DNA of 32,000 nucleotides from Cuniculiplasma divulgatum. GTDB taxonomy: Archaea > Thermoplasmatota > Thermoplasmata > Thermoplasmatales > Thermoplasmataceae. The translations under genes were made by a program, and so were the position numbers. The notes under the pieces are model-generated. The model was not told the origin of the DNA. It searched no databases and worked only from the letters and a program-made list of their open reading frames with translations. Within the stretch, counting starts at the first letter, position 1. The number at the start of each line of letters is the position of its first letter. The stretch is taken from contig NZ_LT671858.1 of NCBI RefSeq assembly GCF_900083515.1, positions 1,650,001 through 1,682,000 of the forward strand. The letters run 5' to 3'. Shown in pieces: positions 2,767 to 32,000 of the stretch.

Positions 2767-3392
2767 TTACAGTTCTGCCTGAGAAAACAGATTTCACAGA
2801 GTGGTTTTGATTTACATATTTCTTTGCTTATTTCAACTATTTCCCCGTGAAAATTTTTGAGATCCTCAAGATCCATATTCCGCTGGATTTCAACACCCAT
2901 GGAATAGGCATTATTCATTCCTGGTTCAATGAGTCCTAATCTGGAGAAAAACCTTTCAGTGTATTTATCTACAACGAACACTTTTCTGTTGAATGCGTAA
3001 ATCATTATGTCCTGCATCGTTTCAATACCAATCCCCTTAGTGTTTAAGAGAAAATCCTCGATATCACTATCTTTCATTTGATCAATCTTCTCAATGCCAC
3101 CCAATTCCTGAATTCTAGTGCATATTTCCTTAAGATAGACAGATTTCTGGTTAAAGAAACCTGCAGGTCTTATCATTTCTTTCAGATCCTCCTGATCCAC
3201 ATTGGTAATTTCTGGTATAGTGTCAATTTTCTTTTCTTTTAGATTTTTCAGAGCTGCCTCAACATTTTTCCATGATGTATTCTGCGTTAATATCGCACCG
3301 ATTATTATCTGATCTCTTGTTTCCGATGGCCACCATCCAAGGTTTCCATATTTTTCCTTTAATATTTTATGTAATTCAGAATAATTCAACAT
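2739..3392 (-). CDS. Endonuclease III-related HhH-GPD DNA glycosylase family protein with a C-terminal Fe-S Cys cluster
   Basis: 217 aa. N-terminal GNLGWWPSETRDQIIIGAILTQNTSWKNV is typical of the EndoIII-related family, and there is a helix-hairpin-helix region LLNTKGIGIETMQ. The C-terminal CKSKPLCEICFLRQNC is a C-x5-C-x2-C-x5-C 4Fe-4S-loop-like motif. The 3' end overlaps the aIF2-gamma 3' end by 28 nt (convergent). Confidence 0.85.
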   Translation of the reverse strand: MLNYSELHKILKEKYGNLGWWPSETRDQIIIGAILTQNTSWKNVEAALKNLKEKKIDTIPEITNVDQEDLKEMIRPAGFFNQKSVYLKEICTRIQELGGIEKIDQMKDSDIEDFLLNTKGIGIETMQDIMIYAFNRKVFVVDKYTERFFSRLGLIEPGMNNAYSMGVEIQRNMDLEDLKNFHGEIVEISKEICKSKPLCEICFLRQNCNYEKDLTEP

Positions 3393-3797
3393 ATCATGAT
3401 GATTTCTTAATAGGTAAGAATTACCATTTTAATTGTGTCCAAAAATCAATAAAATATAAGAAAAAGATTTCGCATTGTTATTCCTTCCATAGGTTTTTGA
3501 TCTCCATTTTGAAGGATATTGTCAGGTTTTAATTTACACCCAATCTAACATATTACTCAACTTTTTTTATCCCCGTTGATCCAATATTCGTGACATCCGG
3601 GTTCCTGAATACTTTATTCATAAATATGGAAAATAATCAGTAAAAATCATTAAAATTTAAGTTTGTCCGATGGAGTAAGACAAATTATTATTTTAATAAA
3701 AATAATAGTATATCCCGTATATGGCATTTTTACTATGTTTACTAAAAAAGGAATAAAAATATTTTAATACTAGTATGTGTATTAAGTATTGGTAAAA

Positions 3798-4070
3798 ATG
3801 GTAGGCATAAGCGAATTGTCGAAGGAGGTTTCTAAAAAAACCGGACAGACACAGAAAGTTGCCAGAGAGGTCATTAAGGTCTTTCTGGACGAAGTTGTAG
3901 CTGAGGCAAACAGGAAGCAGAAAATAAACCTGGCAGGCTTTGGAATTTTCGAAAGAAAGACACAGAAGCCCAGGACTGCTAAGAACCCGCAAACAAGAAA
4001 GGAGATAAAAGTCCCACAGAAAGAAAAGTTTGTTTTCAGACCATCAAGCAAAATAAAATACAAGAACTGA
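3798..4070 (+). CDS. hta: HU-family DNA-binding protein (Thermoplasma HTa-type chromatin protein)
   Basis: MVGISELSKEVSKKTGQTQKVAREVIKVFLDEVV...INLAGFGIFERKTQKPRTAKNPQTRKEIKVPQKEKFVFRPSSKIK is the HU/IHF fold signature and closely resembles Thermoplasma HTa as I recall it. The track start at 3789 is a TTG; the ATG at 3798 gives the canonical MVGISEL N-terminus. Confidence 0.92.
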   Translation: MVGISELSKEVSKKTGQTQKVAREVIKVFLDEVVAEANRKQKINLAGFGIFERKTQKPRTAKNPQTRKEIKVPQKEKFVFRPSSKIKYKN

Positions 4071-4077
4071 GTTCAAA

Positions 4078-4092
4078 TTTTTTTTTATTTTT
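4078..4092 (+). terminator. Oligo-T tract (T9-A-T5) directly after the HTa stop; candidate archaeal intrinsic terminator
   Basis: tttttttttattttt starts 8 nt after the TGA of hta. Archaeal RNA polymerase terminates at oligo-T runs. Confidence 0.45.
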
Positions 4093-4381
4093 AAAGTTTA
4101 GAAAATCTTTTTTTCCTTTCTTTAGAATCAAAGCCCGTTAGTTCCAGTAGTAGATTGTTGAATATTTTTATAGAATTCATTGGCTCTTTATAGGTTTCAT
4201 CTGTTTCGGTTGAGATGAAAAGATTCTTCTTGCCGCATTCAACATCCACTTTCTTAAGACCTGGTAAAGTGAATGTGATTATTTCCCCATTTGCCTTTGC
4301 GTCCTTTGCAAATTTTCCAACTTTCTCCAGTACTGTGCTTACGTCAGTTTTGTATCCTTTTTTAACCGGGTATTCCCTCAT
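4091..4381 (-). CDS. Hypothetical 96-aa soluble protein, translationally coupled to the upstream TIM-barrel gene
   Basis: Its ATG overlaps the stop of the 345-aa gene (ATGA at 4378..4381). The sequence is Lys/Glu-rich with no motif I recognise. Confidence 0.6.
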   Translation of the reverse strand: MREYPVKKGYKTDVSTVLEKVGKFAKDAKANGEIITFTLPGLKKVDVECGKKNLFISTETDETYKEPMNSIKIFNNLLLELTGFDSKERKKRFSKL

Positions 4382-5415
4382 TTTTCCTTACCTCTCTCCT
4401 TTTTTCTCTGCAGATGCCTTGCAAAATTCCTTGCATATATAACTTCCATATACTGAGCATCGTGTTCCAGCAATGGCGAACATGAAATTAGTGTGAGATC
4501 ATCCTGATAATCCATCAGCACCTCAGACATTGTTTCAAACTTCAGATCACCGTGTTTGATGGCCGTTAGCTTTGTTTCTGTTGAACCGCTGTAATCAACA
4601 CCTGCAAACTCAATATACAGGTCACCCTTGGAATGAGCTTTGAACTTATTTATTACTTCTGTAAAATCCTTTGCCTGTATCAGGCTCCCATTTGTTCTTG
4701 CATGATAATGAGGCATATTCAGGATTGGCTCAACAGATGGGACCTTCTTTGCTATGGAAAACAACTCTTCAGCTGAACCAAATATTTCTGGTTTTCCAGA
4801 TGTTTCAACTCCAATGTATGGAAAGCCATGGTCAGTGCCCATTTCTTTATCGATTGATGAATATATCTCAATTGCCCTTTTGAGACTCCCTTTTTTTGTC
4901 TCGTTGTAGAAACCAGTATGAGTAACAACTCTCTTGGCACCCATGGCTTTTCCTATAATAAGAGACCACTTAAGGTGATTTATTGATCTCTCTGAAATAT
5001 CCTCATCGTTTGATAAGGTCTTTGTCGTTAACATATCCATATAATATGGACTGTGGAGTGAAAGCAAGACATCAAGCTCTCTGGCAAGATCTCCCCCCAT
5101 CTTGAGTTCATCATAGTTTTTTGCCATGTTCCAGAACAGTTCTTCCACAATATCGTCTTCCTGAATTACTGTGTCAGTTCCTATACTTGAATATATACCC
5201 TCTTCGTTTGGTCTTAGAACGTCAATTATTATGGAATTTTCGTTATCTTTTGGTAACATTCCCGCGTATTCAATACCCTGATTTTCCTGAACATTTACCC
5301 TGAGTAGCTGCACTTCCAGCGCCTTTAGCCCCAACTTATAAATTTCCTCAACGGAGTCGACAAATGTTCTTCCCTTGCTGGTAAGTGGTATCCCAGCTAT
5401 ACCATATCTTATCAT
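4378..5415 (-). CDS. Xylose isomerase-like / AP endonuclease family 2 (endonuclease IV-like) TIM-barrel protein
   Basis: 345 aa. MIRYGIAGIP...GLKALEVQL...LSLHSPYYMDM...AKRVVTHTGF...IGVETSG...ILNMPHYHAR follows the beta-strand/His-Glu pattern of the Endo IV/xylose-isomerase-like fold, with an acidic insertion of about 60 aa after strand 1. Family-level call only. Confidence 0.6.
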   Translation of the reverse strand: MIRYGIAGIPLTSKGRTFVDSVEEIYKLGLKALEVQLLRVNVQENQGIEYAGMLPKDNENSIIIDVLRPNEEGIYSSIGTDTVIQEDDIVEELFWNMAKNYDELKMGGDLARELDVLLSLHSPYYMDMLTTKTLSNDEDISERSINHLKWSLIIGKAMGAKRVVTHTGFYNETKKGSLKRAIEIYSSIDKEMGTDHGFPYIGVETSGKPEIFGSAEELFSIAKKVPSVEPILNMPHYHARTNGSLIQAKDFTEVINKFKAHSKGDLYIEFAGVDYSGSTETKLTAIKHGDLKFETMSEVLMDYQDDLTLISCSPLLEHDAQYMEVIYARNFARHLQRKKERGKEK

Positions 5416-24741: not shown

Positions 24742-25985
24742 CAGAGAAACACCCCCAATTCCTCCCTTTCGATCAGTTCACCGCGCATATTTTTTCTCAT
24801 CATGGTTTCAAATTCTTCTTCCTCATAATTACCCAGAACATGCATCATCTTGACATAGGCAGTTTCTGGTAGTATGTTTCCCACTGATATTATGCCTGCC
24901 TTTTTCATTTCCCTTCCTGTTGAATATATGTCAAGATTCGTTGTTCCAAAGATGCATTGAGTTGTTATTACAGCCTTCATTCCATCTTTCACCCTTTCAC
25001 TGATGGACTCTAAAAATTTTGTTGCAATGTGTCCAAGTCCGGTTCCCATGAGAATTATTCCTTTCTTACCATCCATTGATTTTGCAAGTTCTTCATGCGT
25101 TAAACCTGGATACATGTAAATTATGGATACCCTCTTTTCTAGATTCGTTTTTAATTTATTTTCATTTTTTTTCCGCCTGTATGATCCATTCAGATTGACC
25201 AGACCTTCCTGGAATGACCCTATGGGTTGTTCACCTATTGCCTTGAATGCATCCCTCCTCGTTGAATGCATTTTTCTTGATCTGGTTCCCCTTATCAGGT
25301 CTATCCTTTCGTCTGATGTGTTGTGGTGCATTGAAATTCCAACCTCTCCGAAATCTGTGGTTGCAAAATCAACTGCAGCCTCAAGGTTCAGGTATGAATC
25401 GCTGCTTGGCCTATCGGAGCTTCTCTGTGATCCTACCAGTACTATGGGTCCGGTCTGTTCTTCAAACATGAATGCAAGTGCTGATGCTGTGTATGACATT
25501 GTATCAGTTCCGTGTGATATTACAACGCCCTCTGAATTATTTAATTCACTGCTTGCTCTTTTGGCAAGGCTTATCCACTGATCTGGTTCCATGTTCTCAC
25601 TTAGAATATTTGAGAAATCCACCCTCTTCAGCCTGTATTTGTTTTCCATATACCTGAATTTGGATGTTAGTTCTCCTATGTCAAGAGATGGAAAAACCGC
25701 ACCTGTTTTATAATCCACCCTGCTCACTATGGTTCCTCCCGTAGTGATAAGTGAAATAGGTTTACCTGTTCCAGACTCTCTCGCCTCTTCTCCTTTACTT
25801 AACGCCTGAATCTTGCCTTTTTTTAAAACAGTAAACGAATCGATCTTAACAGAAATATTATAACCATTTTCCAGTTTAATATTGAAAAAATCATTATCCA
25901 TTGATATAAGGGTTCCGGTCATTTCCCTTCCCCTCCAGCTAAATTTAATTGTGTCACCCATTTGAGGTTTCCTTGAATCTGGCAT
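24741..25985 (-). CDS. gatD: Glutamyl-tRNA(Gln) amidotransferase subunit D (asparaginase-like)
   Basis: 414 aa with asparaginase-family motifs ISLITTGGTI and VVISHGTDTM, and the N-terminal AD1-type domain typical of GatD. Confidence 0.94.
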   Translation of the reverse strand: MPDSRKPQMGDTIKFSWRGREMTGTLISMDNDFFNIKLENGYNISVKIDSFTVLKKGKIQALSKGEEARESGTGKPISLITTGGTIVSRVDYKTGAVFPSLDIGELTSKFRYMENKYRLKRVDFSNILSENMEPDQWISLAKRASSELNNSEGVVISHGTDTMSYTASALAFMFEEQTGPIVLVGSQRSSDRPSSDSYLNLEAAVDFATTDFGEVGISMHHNTSDERIDLIRGTRSRKMHSTRRDAFKAIGEQPIGSFQEGLVNLNGSYRRKKNENKLKTNLEKRVSIIYMYPGLTHEELAKSMDGKKGIILMGTGLGHIATKFLESISERVKDGMKAVITTQCIFGTTNLDIYSTGREMKKAGIISVGNILPETAYVKMMHVLGNYEEEEFETMMRKNMRGELIEREELGVFL

Positions 25986-26018
25986 GATTCATTATGTTTG
26001 ATTCTTATTTTAATTTTT

Positions 26019-26050
26019 AAAAAAAATATGAATTTACTAGAGAAGTAAAT
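26019..26050 (-). terminator. Weak AT hairpin (ATTTACT-5 nt-AGTAAAT) followed by T8 on the minus strand, downstream of the DUF72 gene
   Basis: The minus strand reads atttact-tctct-agtaaat-tcata-tttttttt, starting 31 nt after the DUF72 stop. The same AT-rich stretch probably also carries the gatD promoter. Confidence 0.4.
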
Positions 26051-26080
26051 CCATACTACTTTAGAAGACTCTTTATAGAC

Positions 26081-26869
26081 TCACAAAAGTCTACTCATTT
26101 TATTTATTCCAAGCATGTTTCCAAGTTCCATTGCATTTAGAGGGGCATTTCCGTTAGGATGGTTATTAAAAAATATGAAAATTTCATTAAATTGCTTCTC
26201 GTATCTCATTATTTCATCCTTTATTTCAAGCAATTCCTTTTGATTGTATGCATAATTGAATTTTTCCATTCCTGATTCTTTTTCTGAAAATGCGGGGTTC
26301 CTTCCGTGAAGTCTTATGTAAACGCTTCCTTCATTTGAAATGTTTAACCTCAACGGATTGATATAATTGTCTGTGAAAGATATACTAAATCCGGCATTTT
26401 CAATCAATTTTTGTATTTCAGGGAAATCTTTCTCTTCCAATATCCTTGGCTCGCAGTATATATTGCTTTCATTAAATGTGATTTCTGACATGCTTACGAG
26501 ATATTCCTCCAGGTTGTGATTTGATATCCATGGTGGCAGTGTGAATAGAAATTTTGATTCCTGATCTCTTTTTCTGGCTGGATTCATTACGTTTTTGATG
26601 AACAGATCCATACTCTTTTTCCTGTCACTAATTTCTCCAAAGTGACTTATTGATGAATGGATTTTAATTGATACCTTTATATCTTTATGAATTTTCCGGA
26701 TTGAATTTTCAAATGTTTCCTTTGGAGGAATTGAGTAATATGTTGAATCTATTTCCAGTGCGTTGAAAAAATTTGTGTAGTAGTTGATTGATGGCCTTGT
26801 TCCTTCTGGATAGAATTTGCCCACCCATTCCCTGTATGCCCATCCACATGTTCCAAGAAATATTTTCAA
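26081..26869 (-). CDS. DUF72 (UPF0759) family protein
   Basis: 262 aa. (M)KIFLGTCGWAYREWVGKFYPEG...YYTNFFNALEIDSTYYS...IRLHGRN is the DUF72 pattern. The start must be TTG at 26869 (an in-frame stop lies 2 codons upstream and the next ATG is about 85 codons in). It forms a TTGA overlap with the ACAD stop. Confidence 0.85.
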   Translation of the reverse strand: MKIFLGTCGWAYREWVGKFYPEGTRPSINYYTNFFNALEIDSTYYSIPPKETFENSIRKIHKDIKVSIKIHSSISHFGEISDRKKSMDLFIKNVMNPARKRDQESKFLFTLPPWISNHNLEEYLVSMSEITFNESNIYCEPRILEEKDFPEIQKLIENAGFSISFTDNYINPLRLNISNEGSVYIRLHGRNPAFSEKESGMEKFNYAYNQKELLEIKDEIMRYEKQFNEIFIFFNNHPNGNAPLNAMELGNMLGINKMSRLL

Positions 26870-28011
26870 GGATTAAGTTCCCTCATTACTTCCCTGGCAA
26901 TTATTACTCTCTGAATCTGGTTTGTGCCCTCATATATCTGAGTTATTTTTGCATCTCTCATGTGCCTTTCCGCATCCAGATCTGTTGTGTATCCATATCC
27001 CCCGAAGATCTGAAGTGAATCAGTGGCTATCCGGTTTGCTGCATCAGAAGCGTAGAGCTTTGCCATGGAAGATTCCTTTATGCATGGTTCATGTTTGTCC
27101 CATCTTTCCGCCGCATTGTAAGTCAACAGTTTAGCTGCTTCAATTTCAGTGGCCATATCGGATATCATAAACTGTATTCCTTCCATATTTGATATATTCT
27201 GGCCAAACTGTTTCCTTTGCTGTGAGTAAATAACTGCCTCTTCAAAGGCTGACTCTGCTATGCCAAGGGCCTGAGCTGCAATACCTATCCTTCCTGCATC
27301 AAGGGTTTCCATCACCACCTTAAATCCCTCGTTCAATTTACCTACAATATTTGATTCTGGAACCCTTACATTTTCAAATATGAGTTCAACTGTTGATGAA
27401 CCTCTTATGCCCATTTTATGGATATCCCTGCTAATCTTGAATCCAGGAGCGTCTGAGTCAACTACGAATGTTGTTATTCCCCTGTGACCTTTGGATGGGT
27501 CTGTAACAACATCAACGACGAAAAATTTAGCAAGTCTTCCATTTGAAATAAAAATCTTGGTTCCATTTATTACATAATCATTTCCATCCTTAACCGCAGA
27601 GGTTTTAATGGCTGCTGCATCGCTACCTGCTCCCGGTTCAGTAAGGGCCAGTCCCCCTATTTCACCCTCAGCTACCCTTTTTAAATATTTTTTCTTTAGA
27701 TCTTCCGACCCGAACATCAGAACAGGCTCACCAAATAATGTTAAGGCGCCATCAAGAACTAATGAAGTGCTTGGACAGGCTTTTGATATGATTTCTATTG
27801 CTCTAATCAGGAAGCTAAAACTCATCCCATATCCACCATATTCTTTTGGGATGTAACTCGCAAATAACCCAAGTTCCTTCATTCTATCAATAAGTTTCCG
27901 TGGAACCTCCTCTTTTAGATCTATATCTCTTGCAAGTGGTTTTACCTCTTCATTGGCGAATCTCTTTATGTATTCAAGAACATCCTTTTCCTCTTCCCTT
28001 AATTCACTCAT
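26866..28011 (-). CDS. Acyl-CoA dehydrogenase (short/medium-chain type)
   Basis: 381 aa with GLALTEPGAGSDAAAIKT, GTKIFISNG, ETLDAGRIGIAAQALGIA, QFGQ and the C-terminal QIFGGYGYT...RDAKITQIYEGTNQIQR, the catalytic Glu region of the ACAD family. Confidence 0.93.
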   Translation of the reverse strand: MSELREEEKDVLEYIKRFANEEVKPLARDIDLKEEVPRKLIDRMKELGLFASYIPKEYGGYGMSFSFLIRAIEIISKACPSTSLVLDGALTLFGEPVLMFGSEDLKKKYLKRVAEGEIGGLALTEPGAGSDAAAIKTSAVKDGNDYVINGTKIFISNGRLAKFFVVDVVTDPSKGHRGITTFVVDSDAPGFKISRDIHKMGIRGSSTVELIFENVRVPESNIVGKLNEGFKVVMETLDAGRIGIAAQALGIAESAFEEAVIYSQQRKQFGQNISNMEGIQFMISDMATEIEAAKLLTYNAAERWDKHEPCIKESSMAKLYASDAANRIATDSLQIFGGYGYTTDLDAERHMRDAKITQIYEGTNQIQRVIIAREVMRELNP

Positions 28012-28142
28012 ACCCTAGTAATGTTATTTCAGATATTATTTTTTGGTGGAATTTAATATGACCTTATATTTTTCAGATTTCACATTTTTGAAGTATGAAT
28101 TTTTCAATGTAAGAAACAACAAAATAAACTGGTATGAACGGT

Positions 28143-28718
28143 TTAAATAGGTATTCTATTTTTACTTTTTTTGAAGATCAGGGAAAGCAATCCTATAATA
28201 ACTAAGCCATCAAGGATTTCAAAATAGTTCAATACTGAAAACCCTTCCTGATTCATAATTATAGTATTCTCCTTTCCTGAAAGCGTGCTATTAAGAAAAT
28301 CAGATTTGTTGTAATAGTCAAATATAGTTACCGCATCAATTTTGTACCTCCCAATTCCAAGTTTTATATTTTTACCATAAAATTCCTTATTAGTAATTGT
28401 AAAATTATAGAATTTAACCAAACCAGATGCAGTATCACCCTTCAAGCCACATATTTTTATAGACTCTATAATATTGGCTCCTTTTTGAGATGTACTGTTA
28501 TAAACAAAATTGTTGAAAATGTATAGTTTTGCCATTCCAGTATAGTCAGAAAAGGTTGAAGTGCTAAAAATTTCACCACACAGATTTTTTGTGTTTAGTG
28601 TTTTACATGAATTTGCCTCGAAACGAATTTCGTTTCTCTGATAGGGAGATGCGGAAAATATCAACATGATTATTAATAAAGAAGAAAGAATTACAACCAT
28701 CCTTGTATATTTTATCAT
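28143..28718 (-). CDS. Hypothetical membrane-anchored extracytoplasmic protein (N-terminal signal/anchor plus C-terminal TM and basic tail), last gene of the ABC cluster
   Basis: N-terminus MIKYTRMVVILSSLLIIMLIFSASP and C-terminus GLVIIGLLSLIFKKSKNR. N-x-S/T sequons NST, NFT, NKS and NST. The ATG at 28718 has GGTGA 7 nt upstream; the track's GTG start is at 28736. No family recognised. Confidence 0.6.
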   Translation of the reverse strand: MIKYTRMVVILSSLLIIMLIFSASPYQRNEIRFEANSCKTLNTKNLCGEIFSTSTFSDYTGMAKLYIFNNFVYNSTSQKGANIIESIKICGLKGDTASGLVKFYNFTITNKEFYGKNIKLGIGRYKIDAVTIFDYYNKSDFLNSTLSGKENTIIMNQEGFSVLNYFEILDGLVIIGLLSLIFKKSKNRIPI

Positions 28719-28725
28719 TCTTGAT

Positions 28726-29421
28726 TCACCTTCCACTCTTTAGTCCAAAATTTAGCAACAACCTACTTGAAATCACAACCATTAATATTGAAACTACCAA
28801 TACTACAATAGACTCTATAAGTATGTAGAAAGGATCGATTGAAGATAAATTTAGGTGAAAGTACAATTCTAACTCTATATCGGCTTTATTTTTTGAATTC
28901 CCCGCTATACTAATAGCCTCATACGCAGCAAAAAGTACACCCATTGAAGCGATTCCATCCCTTACAAATACACCTATTATTCTTCCCGCTGCAATAAAAA
29001 GTGAGATCACAGCAACTGAAGCAATCCAGTATAAAACAACATCTTCAACTGGAATGTAGAAGAATTTGATATATAATAAAAGAGATATTTCAATTATTAT
29101 GGCAGAGGGTAATATTATAATATCTATAAAATGGCTTACAAGTAGTGTTGTCATTCTTTTCAAAGGTGCAGTGAACAGGTATCCGAAAACGCCAGATTCT
29201 ATGTTTCTTCCATAAAAATATGACTTTATAAGAGCATAAGCTAATATAGGATAGAAAGCAAAAGACATTGAATTATATAAAAAATATCTATATCCAAAGC
29301 TAACAGCTGAGTATCCTATTATAAGAGATGAAATTAAAATAATTAATTCCTGTACGTGATACTGATTTGAGAGATAGTCAGAAATCCTTATATTAGGGTT
29401 TCTGAACATATGAAAATTCAT
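28726..29421 (-). CDS. Polytopic membrane protein, probable ABC-2-type permease partner of the adjacent ATPase
   Basis: 231 aa with about 6 hydrophobic helices. It overlaps the ATPase gene's 3' end. An alternative ATG lies at 29409. The assignment rests on position and topology only. Confidence 0.6.
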   Translation of the reverse strand: MNFHMFRNPNIRISDYLSNQYHVQELIILISSLIIGYSAVSFGYRYFLYNSMSFAFYPILAYALIKSYFYGRNIESGVFGYLFTAPLKRMTTLLVSHFIDIIILPSAIIIEISLLLYIKFFYIPVEDVVLYWIASVAVISLFIAAGRIIGVFVRDGIASMGVLFAAYEAISIAGNSKNKADIELELYFHLNLSSIDPFYILIESIVVLVVSILMVVISSRLLLNFGLKSGR

Positions 29422-30271
29422 CCTCCATGACTCTTGGAACTGGTATGATGCTCATTATGCTGGCAACCTGATCTGCATTAATTGACGAAATGAAATTTTT
29501 GAAATCTTCATCTCTTATCAAAATATTGTTCCTGATAATTTTATACACTAACTTTCCCTCAATTTTCTTCACTATCTGATCTATTTCCCTAAGTTTTATG
29601 GAAAATAGATTTTCTCCAATTCCTGTTTTTATTGGTATTGGTCCTATTATTTTTTCTGGTCTAAAAATCACTATATTTTCAGCAATTGGAAGCAAATCAT
29701 CAAGAATATGGCTTACTATGATGAATGACAGATCATTTTCATGTCTAAGTCTCTGAATAATGTTGGCCAGAATATTCCTGTTTTCCAGATCTATGTTTGA
29801 ATTTGGCTCATCCAGTACAAAGAATTTACATTCAGTAGAGAGGCAAATGGACATGGATATAAGTTGGGTTTCACCCATGCTAAGGTATTTAGTTCTGGCT
29901 CTCTTTAAGCCGTAAACTCCTAACTCTTCCATTATCATTTTTAATCTTTCAAAATTAATCTTTCTCAATCCAGAATAAAACTCGATCCAGTCCATTACAG
30001 TAAACCCACCTATGGGAAGCGGTCTTTCAGGCAAAAAAGAGACGTCCCTAAAAGCAAGATCTGGATTATAATACGGAAGATGTCCCCCAACCTTTACTTC
30101 ATCTTTTCCCTCTATCTTGGCCAATCCTTCTATGACAGAAATGAGTGAACTCTTTCCTACGCCATTGTGACCTATTATTATTGTAATCCCATCTACAATT
30201 GACACATTAAGATCAGAGAGAGATCTATTCTTAGCATAACTTACCTTTACATGATTTACTTCAAATTTCAT
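29393..30271 (-). CDS. ABC transporter ATP-binding protein (divergent, with an extra C-terminal domain of about 90 aa)
   Basis: Walker A GHNGVGKSS, signature LSMGETQ, Walker B FFVLDEP and H-loop IIVSHIL. The Q-loop position reads FLPERP. GGAGG lies 8 nt before the ATG. ATGA overlap with the upstream gene. Confidence 0.85.
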   Translation of the reverse strand: MKFEVNHVKVSYAKNRSLSDLNVSIVDGITIIIGHNGVGKSSLISVIEGLAKIEGKDEVKVGGHLPYYNPDLAFRDVSFLPERPLPIGGFTVMDWIEFYSGLRKINFERLKMIMEELGVYGLKRARTKYLSMGETQLISMSICLSTECKFFVLDEPNSNIDLENRNILANIIQRLRHENDLSFIIVSHILDDLLPIAENIVIFRPEKIIGPIPIKTGIGENLFSIKLREIDQIVKKIEGKLVYKIIRNNILIRDEDFKNFISSINADQVASIMSIIPVPRVMEDEFSYVQKP

Positions 30272-31152
30272 TGATTTATCCTCCTTCTAATCCTCTTTCT
30301 TACATGTCTTACTGTTAGAACTAAGAATAAGACTCCCACTATCCATATGGCAGCTATAAGATTTATATTCTCAATAAGATAATAAGTATAGTCTAAATTA
30401 AACTTGACATTTGTTCTTGTTAGAGATATGGTAAAATCGCATATAACTTGATCTTTTGTTCCGAGTAATTTATTTGCGAGGGAAAAATTTCCTCCCTGCA
30501 TAACCATATCTGATAAAACGTAATAAGAGCCACTTTGAGACAACCCAACCATACTTTGAGGAAATTCCTGGTAAGCAGAGTGTTGAGATGGATTTTTTAT
30601 TATCGACTCATTATTAATATTTAATGGCACATATAGTCTTTCAATTGCAACTTCTCCATTTATATGAAATACATCTTGAGGCGGTCCAAAATCAACAGTG
30701 TCATCAGAGCAGATGATCTTTCTTGATGCTACTTTCAACAACAGTGAACCGTATTCAAAAAATTGCCCAAATTGGGAAAGATTTCCCATAAAATAACCTA
30801 TTGTGCTACCATTTCTGCTTTGAATACCTGAGATTTTAGACAGTTCAGGTTTTCCTTTTTGACTGCAGCCGTGTATACTTAATGAGTAGCTGTATTTATT
30901 GTTTCCAATGCTAGTTATATTAAGATATGAACAAGGAGTTTCAAGTAAAGTTGTTCCATTTCCATCGTTCTTTAGAATGAATCCACCTATCTGATACGAA
31001 AAATTTGCACCACTACTATCTGGATTAGCCACATAATTGTTTAAAGATGTCTTCTCTATTTCTAGCGGTATAACTGAGATGGTGATTGTAGATATGATAA
31101 GTATGATCAATGTTACAACTATAAAAATTTTAAGTTTCAACCTGAGGTTCAC
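30268..31152 (-). CDS. Hypothetical surface protein with an N-terminal signal/anchor, a sequon-rich ectodomain of about 230 aa, and a C-terminal TM with an Arg-rich tail
   Basis: N-terminus KLKIFIVVTLIILIISTITISVI and C-terminus LIAAIWIVGVLFLVLTVRHVRKRIRRRINQ. Sequons NFS, NGT, NIT, NGS, NLS, NES and NFS, and 4 Cys. GTG start at 31152, 6 nt after the upstream stop. No family recognised. Confidence 0.6.
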   Translation of the reverse strand: MNLRLKLKIFIVVTLIILIISTITISVIPLEIEKTSLNNYVANPDSSGANFSYQIGGFILKNDGNGTTLLETPCSYLNITSIGNNKYSYSLSIHGCSQKGKPELSKISGIQSRNGSTIGYFMGNLSQFGQFFEYGSLLLKVASRKIICSDDTVDFGPPQDVFHINGEVAIERLYVPLNINNESIIKNPSQHSAYQEFPQSMVGLSQSGSYYVLSDMVMQGGNFSLANKLLGTKDQVICDFTISLTRTNVKFNLDYTYYLIENINLIAAIWIVGVLFLVLTVRHVRKRIRRRINQ

Positions 31153-31158
31153 CTGTTA

Positions 31159-31884
31159 CTATTGAGCAAATGATGTTCCTGCCTGTAATACTGTATTTAT
31201 GATACTAGACCAGCTTATTGATGCACCTGATTTGACTGAATATTTTCCTATATCAGATCCGTTTATTCCCCCGTTTCCTATTAGCATATACATTTCTACT
31301 GTGGTACTAGTTTTAGTTACTACGTTTACCGTGTTGAAAAATGTGAATGACCAGATATATAATGTTCCAGTTACCCCATCTTTAGTAATTTGAGTTAAGT
31401 TCATTAAAGTTCCTGTTGAAAGAGATGCTCCACCTGTCAGAATTGGATTAGGGTTAATAGATGCAGAGTTTTCAACCTTAAGCGGGATATTGCAAACTAT
31501 AACTGGATTTTGCCCTGGATATTCATAAACCTTCTTTTCTATAAGGAAAGTTAATTTACCTGTTTCTTTCACACATACTGGTGAATATTGTGGATACGCT
31601 TGAACATAGCAGGTTTGACTAAATTCAATCCCTCCTTGTCTAACTTGCGTTCTACATGTCGGTCCTCTTGATATTGTAGAACAATTGACGTTGGTAGAAG
31701 AGATTGCTGTTTGTTTATTACCACTCGTTGGAGTGTTAATATTTTTGGAGTTTCCAAAGGGCATGGCTATCATTGAAATTATGGCCAGGAAAAATAACCC
31801 CCCCCCAATTACTAATTTTATGTCAGAAAATTTAATTTCTGCATCCATCAGGGTTGAATCCCATGGTTCGTTTATCTTTTTCAT
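31159..31884 (-). CDS. Hypothetical secreted/anchored Ser-Thr-Asn-rich protein, first gene of the ABC cluster; contains a G9 tract
   Basis: 241 aa with an N-terminal hydrophobic segment LVIGGGLFFLAIISMIAMPFG. A Cys-containing region follows (NCS...PTC...QTC...PVC...IVC), then a beta-rich S/T/N/G C-terminal half. No family recognised. Confidence 0.6.
   Translation of the reverse strand: MKKINEPWDSTLMDAEIKFSDIKLVIGGGLFFLAIISMIAMPFGNSKNINTPTSGNKQTAISSTNVNCSTISRGPTCRTQVRQGGIEFSQTCYVQAYPQYSPVCVKETGKLTFLIEKKVYEYPGQNPVIVCNIPLKVENSASINPNPILTGGASLSTGTLMNLTQITKDGVTGTLYIWSFTFFNTVNVVTKTSTTVEMYMLIGNGGINGSDIGKYSVKSGASISWSSIINTVLQAGTSFAQ
31798..31806 (-). repeat. Homopolymeric G9 (C9 on the plus strand) inside the first gene of the ABC cluster
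   Basis: The plus strand reads aataaCCCCCCCCCaatt. The minus strand encodes Gly-Gly-Gly (GGG GGG GGG) in ...KLVIGGGLFF... It is the only G/C run of this length I found in the window. Confidence 0.95.
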
Positions 31885-31906
31885 AAAATCAAATTCTTTT
31901 AATGTT

Positions 31907-31931
31907 ATATAAATATTGCTGATATTTATAT
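31907..31931 (-). promoter_or_regulatory. Perfect 10-bp inverted repeat ATATAAATAT-TGCTG-ATATTTATAT overlapping the presumed TATA box of the ABC-cluster operon
   Basis: It lies 23-47 nt upstream of the ATG at 31884. The proximal arm is at the distance expected for a TATA box of a leaderless or short-leader transcript. Confidence 0.4.
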
Positions 31932-32000
31932 CACACGATTACTTTTGTTCCAAAAATAAAATAAGATAATTGTTTTAATTTAGAACTAAATTTATGAACA

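Follow-up and report, generated by a model that had tools for sequence, protein, structure and literature searches.

What would a wall-less archaeon do with an ATP-binding cassette (ABC) transporter that is encoded together with three membrane-anchored proteins of no recognizable family? The question is raised by a five-gene operon on the minus strand of a 32,000-nucleotide stretch of the Cuniculiplasma divulgatum genome (contig NZ_LT671858.1, positions 1,650,001 to 1,682,000), referred to below as the window. The best explanation, to which we assign a probability of roughly 0.55, is that this lineage-restricted, five-component membrane module is a contingency (phase- and allele-variable) locus for a cell surface complex with an ABC-2 engine. 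The cells of C. divulgatum are bounded by a membrane only and are deficient in a surface layer (S-layer) (PMC5155288), in line with the wall-less Thermoplasmatales host supposed in an earlier reading of the bare sequence (the initial annotation). Since there is neither a wall nor an S-layer, the membrane proteins of Cuniculiplasma are its cell surface. The five genes, with the lengths of their products and of the longer open reading frames (ORFs), are as follows.

31159..31884, minus strand: gene 1 (CSP5_1746), 241 aa
30268..31152, minus strand: gene 2 (CSP5_1745), 294 aa
29393..30271, minus strand: gene 3 (CSP5_1744), ABC ATPase, 292 aa
28726..29409, minus strand: gene 4 (CSP5_1743), permease, 227 aa (longer ORF form 28726-29421, 231 aa)
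28143..28718, minus strand: gene 5 (CSP5_1742), 191 aa (longer ORF form 28143-28736, 197 aa)

In the contingency locus reading, the ATPase, the permease, and the gene 5 product would form the conserved core of the complex, and the products of genes 1 and 2 would be its exposed faces, selected to vary. Their variation could come about by frameshift switching, by allelic divergence or recombination, and by cassette amplification. Slipped-strand mispairing at a G tract in gene 1 would turn the anchored product ON and OFF in a stochastic, heritable, and reversible manner, with a reading frame that yields either the anchored protein of 241 aa or a stub of 34 aa followed by a 204-aa ORF. ATP hydrolysis by the ABC pair might drive either the export of a small substrate or NosDFY-like conformational work in extracellular partners. 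Candidate selective agents would be viruses, an ectosymbiont of the ARMAN (archaeal Richmond Mine acidophilic nanoorganisms)/DPANN kind, and other cells.

The tract and the ORF that remains when it is out of frame have the following positions.

31798..31806, minus strand: G9 tract (C9 on the plus strand), nucleotides 79-87 of gene 1, encoding Gly-Gly-Gly at the start of the transmembrane (TM) anchor
31159..31773, minus strand: alternative 204-aa ORF (MIAMPFG...)

This tract is the sole G/C run of at least 7 nucleotides in the 32 kb, for which the expected number of runs of at least 9 is 0.017. GGG accounts for only 14.5% of Gly codons, a usage at which GGG-GGG-GGG is improbable. (A T9 run is located at window position 4078.) In public assemblies with identical flanks, the tract is found as G9 at 17 loci, as G8 at 9, and as G10 and G7 at 1 locus each. 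By exact-protein look-up, 21 contigs encode the 241-aa product in frame and 8 carry the out-of-frame 204-aa ORF. Two of the loci, L037 and L044, are a single G apart in 2561 nt. The tract is also polymorphic on a second haplotype (L007 versus L008/L009), and in a third lineage (L020/L021) it is G8. Ten other homopolymers of these assemblies (A/T runs of 7-8) show no variation in length.

An out-of-frame tract leaves an ORF of 34 aa, whose TGA overlaps the ATG of the 204-aa ORF (CAATGAT, window positions 31770-31776). CAATGAT is conserved at the homologous sites of L007 and L020, as the stop of a 34- to 37-aa ORF and the start of a 204- to 210-aa ORF. Such a junction is compatible with termination-reinitiation and thereby with an anchorless gene 1 product in the OFF state. 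An unusually long repeat in a coding region and a frame-changing length polymorphism among near-identical genomes, two of the hallmarks used to recognize contingency loci, are both present. The gene 1 tract is a candidate slipped-strand phase variation tract, which makes the module a credible candidate for repeat-mediated phase variation in an archaeon.

The same locus is also variable at the level of alleles. Between the window genome and a second C. divulgatum-type lineage, synonymous divergence (dS) is 0-0.01 in the genes further upstream, and the flanks are 99.5-100% identical. A block of ~7.7 kb centered on the operon shows dS of 0.1-0.5, with nucleotide identity going down to 78% in the gene 1 ectodomain. 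The locus consists of deeply diverged haplotypes within one species, whose strains worldwide share 98.4-98.8% average nucleotide identity (PMC5155288). The ratio of nonsynonymous divergence (dN) to dS against the sister haplotype is 0.55 in gene 1, 0.34 in gene 2, and ~0.2 in the rest; gene 1, with a protein only 76% identical to that of the sister haplotype, is the fastest-evolving component. As dS of the block is raised, and not just dN, old alleles or recombination account for this divergence better than mere relaxation. The diverged block corresponds to window positions ~24750-32000 (L001 8700-16400) and reaches into the acyl-CoA dehydrogenase, DUF72, and GatD genes; the DUF72 gene (26081-26869) has the highest dS, 0.51, with a local identity trough of 79.5%.

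A further kind of variation is found in sister lineages, where the front of the operon is tandemly repeated and the repeats end in a 5' stub of the ATPase gene. The amplified unit consists of the promoter, gene 1, gene 2, and this stub. The repeats are located as follows.

L007, 8885-9993: one extra gene 2 copy (copies 37% identical), 85-aa ATPase stub
L018, 5089-6996: one extra gene 2 copy, from an apparently independent duplication, 46-aa ATPase stub
L020, 337-5568 (L020/L021): three gene 1-gene 2 pairs, 82-aa ATPase stub

The gene 1 copies of L020, the one tandem array available, retain 91-97% identity in their heads (leader and tract) and similar upstream sequences, but their ectodomains have diverged to dS of >1.4, with dN/dS of 0.27-0.41. 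The variable tract, the diverged haplotype, and the tandem amplification, the most informative features of the locus, are not mentioned in the initial annotation.

The products of genes 1, 2, and 5 are predicted to be three mutually unrelated orphan membrane-anchored proteins, each representing a real conserved family. Gene 1 encodes a 21-residue cytoplasmic head, one TM segment (residues 22-40), a Ser/Thr/Asn-rich linker, and a Cys-containing, β-rich ectodomain. The gene 2 product has TM segments at residues 9-27 and 263-281, which enclose an ectodomain of ~230 aa with 7 N-x-S/T sequons and are followed by an Arg/Lys-rich cytoplasmic tail. The product of gene 5, the gene that closes the module in every case, is built similarly, with TM segments at residues 7-25 and 163-181, an ectodomain of ~135 aa with 4 sequons, and a Lys-rich tail. 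This agrees with the anchors and TM segments described in the initial annotation, as does the richness in sequons, which number 1.2-2.4 per 100 aa in these three proteins versus 0.56 in the other genes of the window, a two- to four-fold difference. The initial annotation could place none of the three in a family and proposed profile searches. Such searches, with single sequences and with family profiles and members against Pfam, NCBIfam, PADLOC, and the PDB sequences, retrieve no characterized family; Pfam scans of every member of the three families give no recurrent match, and hhalign comparisons among the families reveal no mutual relation. A potential double-glycine leader (..DIKLVIGG) in the N terminus of gene 1 was considered and rejected: distant homologues do not have it, and no ABC transporter with a C39 peptidase is present.

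The N- and C-terminal TM topology of the gene 2 and gene 5 products is also that of polysaccharide co-polymerases. This would suit the explanation preferred in the initial annotation, the export of a glycoconjugate: a Wzm/Wzt- or TarGH-like transporter would flip or export a lipid-linked glycan, a lipoglycan, or another glycoconjugate, with the bitopic proteins as co-polymerase-like or assembly adaptors for the glycocalyx of the wall-less cell.

The initial annotation had also made its case depend on finding the five genes together in further genomes. The five-gene order, with all families recognized by hidden Markov models, recurs in L016/L017, L018/L019, and L029/L030, which belong to other Thermoplasmata metagenome-assembled genomes. 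In these distant modules, the ATPase is 40-44% and the permease 21-37% identical to the proteins in the window, and the chromosomal neighborhoods differ. Retention of five genes in the same order at 21-44% identity argues for function. The module is nevertheless rare. Gene 2 is represented by 4 clusters among 5.8 billion proteins, and a scan of 185,579 genomes with the ATPase alignment finds 1 other species. Scans of viral contigs with gene 1, gene 2, and the ATPase retrieve no relatives, and JGI metagenome scans with the tract-flanking DNA pattern and with the ATPase alignment retrieve nothing relevant. For a glycan exporter with a housekeeping role in the envelope, this distribution is far too narrow.

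Gene 3 is predicted to encode an ABC ATPase that is divergent yet competent, belongs to the DrrA-like ABC-2 type, and has a C-terminal domain. It matches the ABC_tran domain (Pfam ID PF00005) with 52 bits, above the cut-off of 25, and contains a Walker A motif (G34-x2-G-x-GKS41), an unusual LSMGE signature at residues 130-134, a Walker B motif (FVLDE155), and H188. In the family alignment, GxxGxGKS, LSMGE, FVLDE, and SH are invariant across 9 ATPase family members. The position of the Q-loop Gln is occupied by Glu82, and this Glu is likewise invariant in the family. The intact motifs, the odd Q-loop, and the extra C-terminal domain (~90 aa) thus stand as first described. The likeness of this extension to Wzt does not: the family profile aligns over nearly the full length of Rv1218c, C-terminal domain included (3-274 to 3-276), and with the PmtC-type protein 6xjh_C (3-266 to 1-262). 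The C-terminal domain is of the DrrA/PmtC type and not a Wzt carbohydrate-binding module, which leaves the Wzt analogy unsupported.

Among curated families, gene 3 matches the NCBIfam models of lantibiotic-protection, daunorubicin-resistance, and phenol-soluble modulin (PSM)-export ATPases, all far under their cut-offs. It aligns over residues 12-263 with positions 3-263 of the 302 in the TIGR01188 drrA profile, with 60 bits against a cut-off of 312, and it matches galliderm_ABC with 64 bits against 310; the kinship with DrrA appears to be remote and not one of equivalog membership. In PADLOC, gene 3 shows only generic ATPase similarity (mad3, 87 bits), and the defense models have no match to genes 1, 2, 4, and 5.

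Gene 4 has no Pfam match of its own, including the ABC2_membrane models. Scans of the 14 members of its family find PF01061 in 2 (best E value, 1.6e-4) and PF12679 in 1, and the permease profile has no match among the PDB sequences. A search of 1.84 billion proteins with this profile retrieves 13 representatives, all of ~230 aa. The family shares a conserved IExGxxGYxFTxPIxR motif and an invariant L(K/R)(S/N)GR that closes all 14 members; to our knowledge, this C-terminal signature has no counterpart in other ABC-2 permeases. The AlphaFold (AF2) model of gene 4 is confident (predicted local distance difference test score [pLDDT], 84.2; predicted template modeling score [pTM], 0.83) and comprises six long helices. 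Foldseek comparison of this model with the PDB returns NosY as the top match (TM-score, 0.65; probability, 1.00), followed by ABCG25, PmtD, CcmB, and Rv1217c. The model points to the ABC-2/type V fold, with six TM helices and NosY as the nearest structure, in keeping with the permease of about six TM helices, resembling the ABC-2 type, that had been proposed for this gene. This fold is common to Wzm, TarG, and the ABCG lipid/glycolipid exporters, which would also be consistent with glycan export, but TarG ranks only 48th among the fold matches (TM-score, 0.38), with NosY, ABCG, and PmtD above it. As gene 4 reaches no Pfam threshold, it represents, by sequence, a new remote subfamily. Together, the products of genes 3 and 4 make up an ABC-2/type V pair of the DrrAB/PmtCD/NosFY kind, which constitutes a new, very small subfamily.

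The five genes make up one complete, self-contained operon. Its packing was described correctly in the initial annotation: the longest ORFs are separated by a 6-nt gap and then overlap by 4, 29, and 11 nt, exactly as their coordinates require. For genes 4 and 5, homologues and gene callers prefer the shorter starts (29409 and 28718), with which genes 3 and 4 overlap by 17 nt and genes 4 and 5 are 7 nt apart. The operon is bracketed by two putative signals.

31906..31913, minus strand: TATA-like box TTTATATA, 22-29 nt 5' of the gene 1 ATG
28111..28128, minus strand: T-rich stretch TTTATTTTGTTGTTTCTT, 14 nt past the gene 5 stop codon

From what is generally known of archaeal promoters, the TATA-like box is the likely promoter of the operon, whose transcript would be leaderless or have a short leader; upstream regions resembling it are found ahead of every gene 1 copy in L007/L008 and of all three in L020. 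The T-rich stretch is likely an archaeal terminator that marks the end of the operon. A scan for sigma-70 promoters and hairpin terminators shows no excess over shuffled sequences, its bacterial models being uninformative for an archaeon. The 5' neighbor, on longer contigs with identical genes, is a divergently transcribed phosphoribosyltransferase gene (CSP5_1747), so the cluster stops before position 32000 and does not, as first suspected, continue beyond it. The 3' neighbor, 131 nt away, encodes an acyl-CoA dehydrogenase (CSP5_1741), and GatE (CSP5_1738) and GatD (CSP5_1739) are encoded nearby; the numbering is that of strain S5, matched via the published proteome table. CSP5_0893, the "ABC transporter ATPase" of the cold-shock proteome paper, was considered as a possible counterpart of gene 3 and rejected, as it belongs to a separate locus.

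The cluster is AT rich, as had been noted from a few lines of sequence: its GC content is 33.1% versus 38.5% in the rest of the window, below all 488 same-size windows elsewhere (minimum, 35.5%; standard deviation, 1.3%). The GC content at third codon positions (GC3) is 0.25-0.31 in the cluster versus ~0.36 elsewhere, and in each of the lineages examined, the homologous module has a higher AT content than the DNA around it. The published genomic islands of C. divulgatum have a GC content of 37.7-43.2%, above that of the operon block (PMC5155288). Other low-GC stretches (0.33-0.34) are found at window positions 3001-4500 and 25501-27000, one of which covers the DUF72 gene; the operon is the longest and lowest AT-rich spot of the window, not the sole one. 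A simple reading of the block as recently acquired DNA is not supported. Three Cuniculiplasma lineages have the module at one and the same place in the chromosome, and it is therefore not a recent insertion in S5; at a greater distance, the module does occur in other neighborhoods, once beside a transposase.

These neighborhoods have features of their own. A Transposase_mut/MULE gene (L029 906-1943) lies directly upstream of the most distant five-gene homologue, and downstream of the same module is a second ABC cluster, which includes an HTH_34 regulator. In a sister strain, a second, unrelated cluster (L008 1-3516) is found ~3.7 kb upstream of the operon. Its genes specify an anchored protein of 298 aa rich in Cys and Asn, an ABC ATPase of 287 aa with only 23% identity to gene 3, and a multi-TM permease of 304 aa, and the cluster takes the place of the major facilitator superfamily (MFS) transporter gene of the window genome, beside a gene for a 173-aa anchored protein. 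The L008 cluster suggests a wider variable neighborhood of modules that combine ABC transporters with surface proteins. Genes for an epimerase, an aminotransferase, an NTP-transferase, a family 2 glycosyltransferase (GT2), and a phosphoglucomutase/phosphomannomutase (PGM/PMM) are found within a few kilobases of the distant modules (L016 9209-14383, L018 12857-14864). These sugar genes, 1-6 kb away in the case of the epimerase and NTP-transferase in L016 and of GT2 and PGM/PMM in L018, weakly support a link between the module and glycans. They are not immediate neighbors, however, those of L018 being separated from the module by opposite-strand genes, and no glycan synthesis gene or glycosyltransferase adjoins the module at any Cuniculiplasma locus.

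Several observations weigh against the contingency locus reading. The tract lengths were read from assemblies, not from reads or clones. In L020/L021, all three gene 1 copies are out of frame, and two of the three have an interrupted, poorly mutable tract and yet retain intact ORFs, a state better explained by silent cassettes, reinitiation, or recoding than by plain ON/OFF switching. The G tract is absent from the distant homologues in L016, L018, and L029; phase variation is thus not intrinsic to the module and would be a Cuniculiplasma innovation on an older one. With dN/dS below 1 in every comparison, the values do not demonstrate positive selection. CSP5_1742 to CSP5_1746 are not among the listed rows of the S5 intracellular proteome tables, in which both neighbors are listed. 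Finally, an AF2 run on gene 2 with a 4-sequence alignment gave a pLDDT of 40.9 and no usable structure.

A bolder form of the contingency locus reading goes further and is correspondingly tentative. Here, an archaeal poly-G switch, diverged alleles, and tandem silent or expressed gene 1-gene 2 cassettes would together vary the membrane face of the cell and so control the attachment of the symbiont Mia14 or of viruses, in convergence with mycoplasmas. The ARMAN symbiont Mia14 has been established experimentally to live in tight contact with its Cuniculiplasma host (PMC5498576).

The best-surviving alternative, although an unlikely one, is an efflux or self-protection pump, a DrrAB/PmtCD/LanFEG-like ABC-2 exporter that would clear the bare membrane of a membrane-active peptide, a drug, or a toxic metabolite, in which the products of genes 1, 2, and 5 would sense or shield and an arms race with antimicrobials from other members of the community would drive their rapid evolution. 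The closest full-length relatives of the ATPase with solved structures, Rv1218c and PmtC, are efflux or peptide exporters, the NCBIfam matches concern protection, resistance, and export (if far below the cut-offs), one public source names a homologue "ABC-type multidrug transport system ATPase," and the operon is self-contained, without biosynthetic genes. However, the similarity to named families is that of a generic nucleotide-binding domain (60-72 bits versus cut-offs of >300), and no peptide precursor, modification enzyme, two-component sensor, or immunity protein homologue is found in or beside the operon in the lineages examined. Efflux also leaves unexplained the frameshift-prone tract, the gene 1-gene 2 arrays, and the conservation of three large ectodomain proteins.

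A plain orphan accessory ABC transporter, in which G7-G10 would reflect assembly or sequencing error or incipient pseudogenization of a dispensable gene and the divergence relaxed constraint on a poorly expressed, AT-rich accessory operon, appears less likely again. Homopolymers are prone to sequencing errors, and the dependence of the tract data on assemblies, the out-of-frame state of every L020 gene 1 copy, the missing proteome rows, the low GC3, and an elevated dN/dS that stays below 1 are all compatible with it. Against an error stand the ten invariant control homopolymers in the same assemblies and the occurrence of out-of-frame variants in independent ENA and Logan assemblies and on two haplotypes. 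Against decay, the 204-aa ORF is 100% intact in 8/8 contigs (the exact look-up returns intact copies only), the tract is in frame in 72% of contigs versus the 33% expected of a neutral, free-running one, and the improbable run of GGG codons and the retained five-gene order have to be accounted for as well. The glycan exporter of the initial annotation is improbable, given the type of the ATPase C-terminal domain, the distant rank of TarG, the absence of adjoining glycan genes in Cuniculiplasma, the narrow distribution, and a hypervariability atypical of a core exporter.

How does this module compare with known systems? A parallel in organization is NosDFY(L) (PDB IDs 7o0y, 7qba, and 7znq), which likewise combines a six-TM type V permease, a separate ATPase, and co-encoded extracytoplasmic partners. 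The ABC pair of NosDFY is used for work in an extracellular partner and not for classical solute export. By analogy, similar work on extracellular partners is plausible for the module. It is not, however, a member of the NosDFYL family: Pfam, NCBIfam, and PDB-sequence searches find no homologue of NosD (β-helix/CASH) or NosL, the partners are membrane anchored by one or two TM segments, there is no nos gene context, and NosY and gene 4 are only 16-19% identical in sequence.

With DrrAB, Rv1217c-Rv1218c, and PmtCD, the module shares the full-length ATPase alignment, the presence of PmtD and Rv1217c among the permease fold matches, and translationally overlapped genes, an analogy that suggests export or efflux by the ABC pair. 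It differs from them in scores far under the curated cut-offs, in LSMGE and the Q-loop Glu, and in a tiny permease family (13 representatives) with an LKSGR end of its own; those systems, in turn, are devoid of three conserved ectodomain partners. A LanFEG-type immunity cluster would be expected to include a linked precursor peptide, modification or processing enzymes, or an immunity lipoprotein, none of which is found in the contexts examined. The glycan or teichoic acid exporters Wzm/Wzt and TarGH resemble the module in the type V fold class, in a separate ATPase with a C-terminal extension, and in a proposed role in surface glycoconjugates and differ from it in the nature of that extension, in the TarG TM-score given above, and in their link to glycan genes. 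The new ABC-2 subfamily, with three obligate partner families, extends the range of ABC systems that possibly act on extracellular partners and not on solutes.

For the variation itself, the nearest parallels are bacterial. In Mycoplasma fermentans p78, a 5' poly(A) tract in the gene for a surface subunit of an ABC operon leads to phase variation (PMC2831843, PMC3711429). The two cases share a wall-less host, a 5' homopolymer in the surface subunit gene of an ABC operon, and the loss of the full-length protein upon a one-base change. They differ in that p78 has a bacterial poly-A tract in a lipoprotein gene, whereas here an archaeal poly-G tract lies in a TM anchor without a lipobox, and in that the p78 operon is annotated as importer type and the module is of the ABC-2 exporter type. 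The likeness is functional and does not involve homology. Switching of p78 has been shown experimentally, whereas that of gene 1 is deduced from sequence comparison. The tandem gene 1 copies of L020, with a conserved 5' head and diverged ectodomains, recall the mycoplasma Vlp and Vsp proteins, which combine conserved 5' heads with variable bodies.

Stochastic ON/OFF switching of surface proteins via hypermutable repeats is characteristic of bacteria adapted to a host. For archaea, phase-variable loci are still to be explored according to a 2025 review (PMC11868660), and literature searches return no example of repeat-driven phase variation in archaea among their top-ranked papers. A switchable, allele-diverse, and copy-number-variable surface complex would be a testable candidate for the host side of symbiont or virus recognition, the more so as Cuniculiplasma is cultivable. 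If this is true, antigenic variation like that of the mycoplasmas would have arisen convergently in Archaea.

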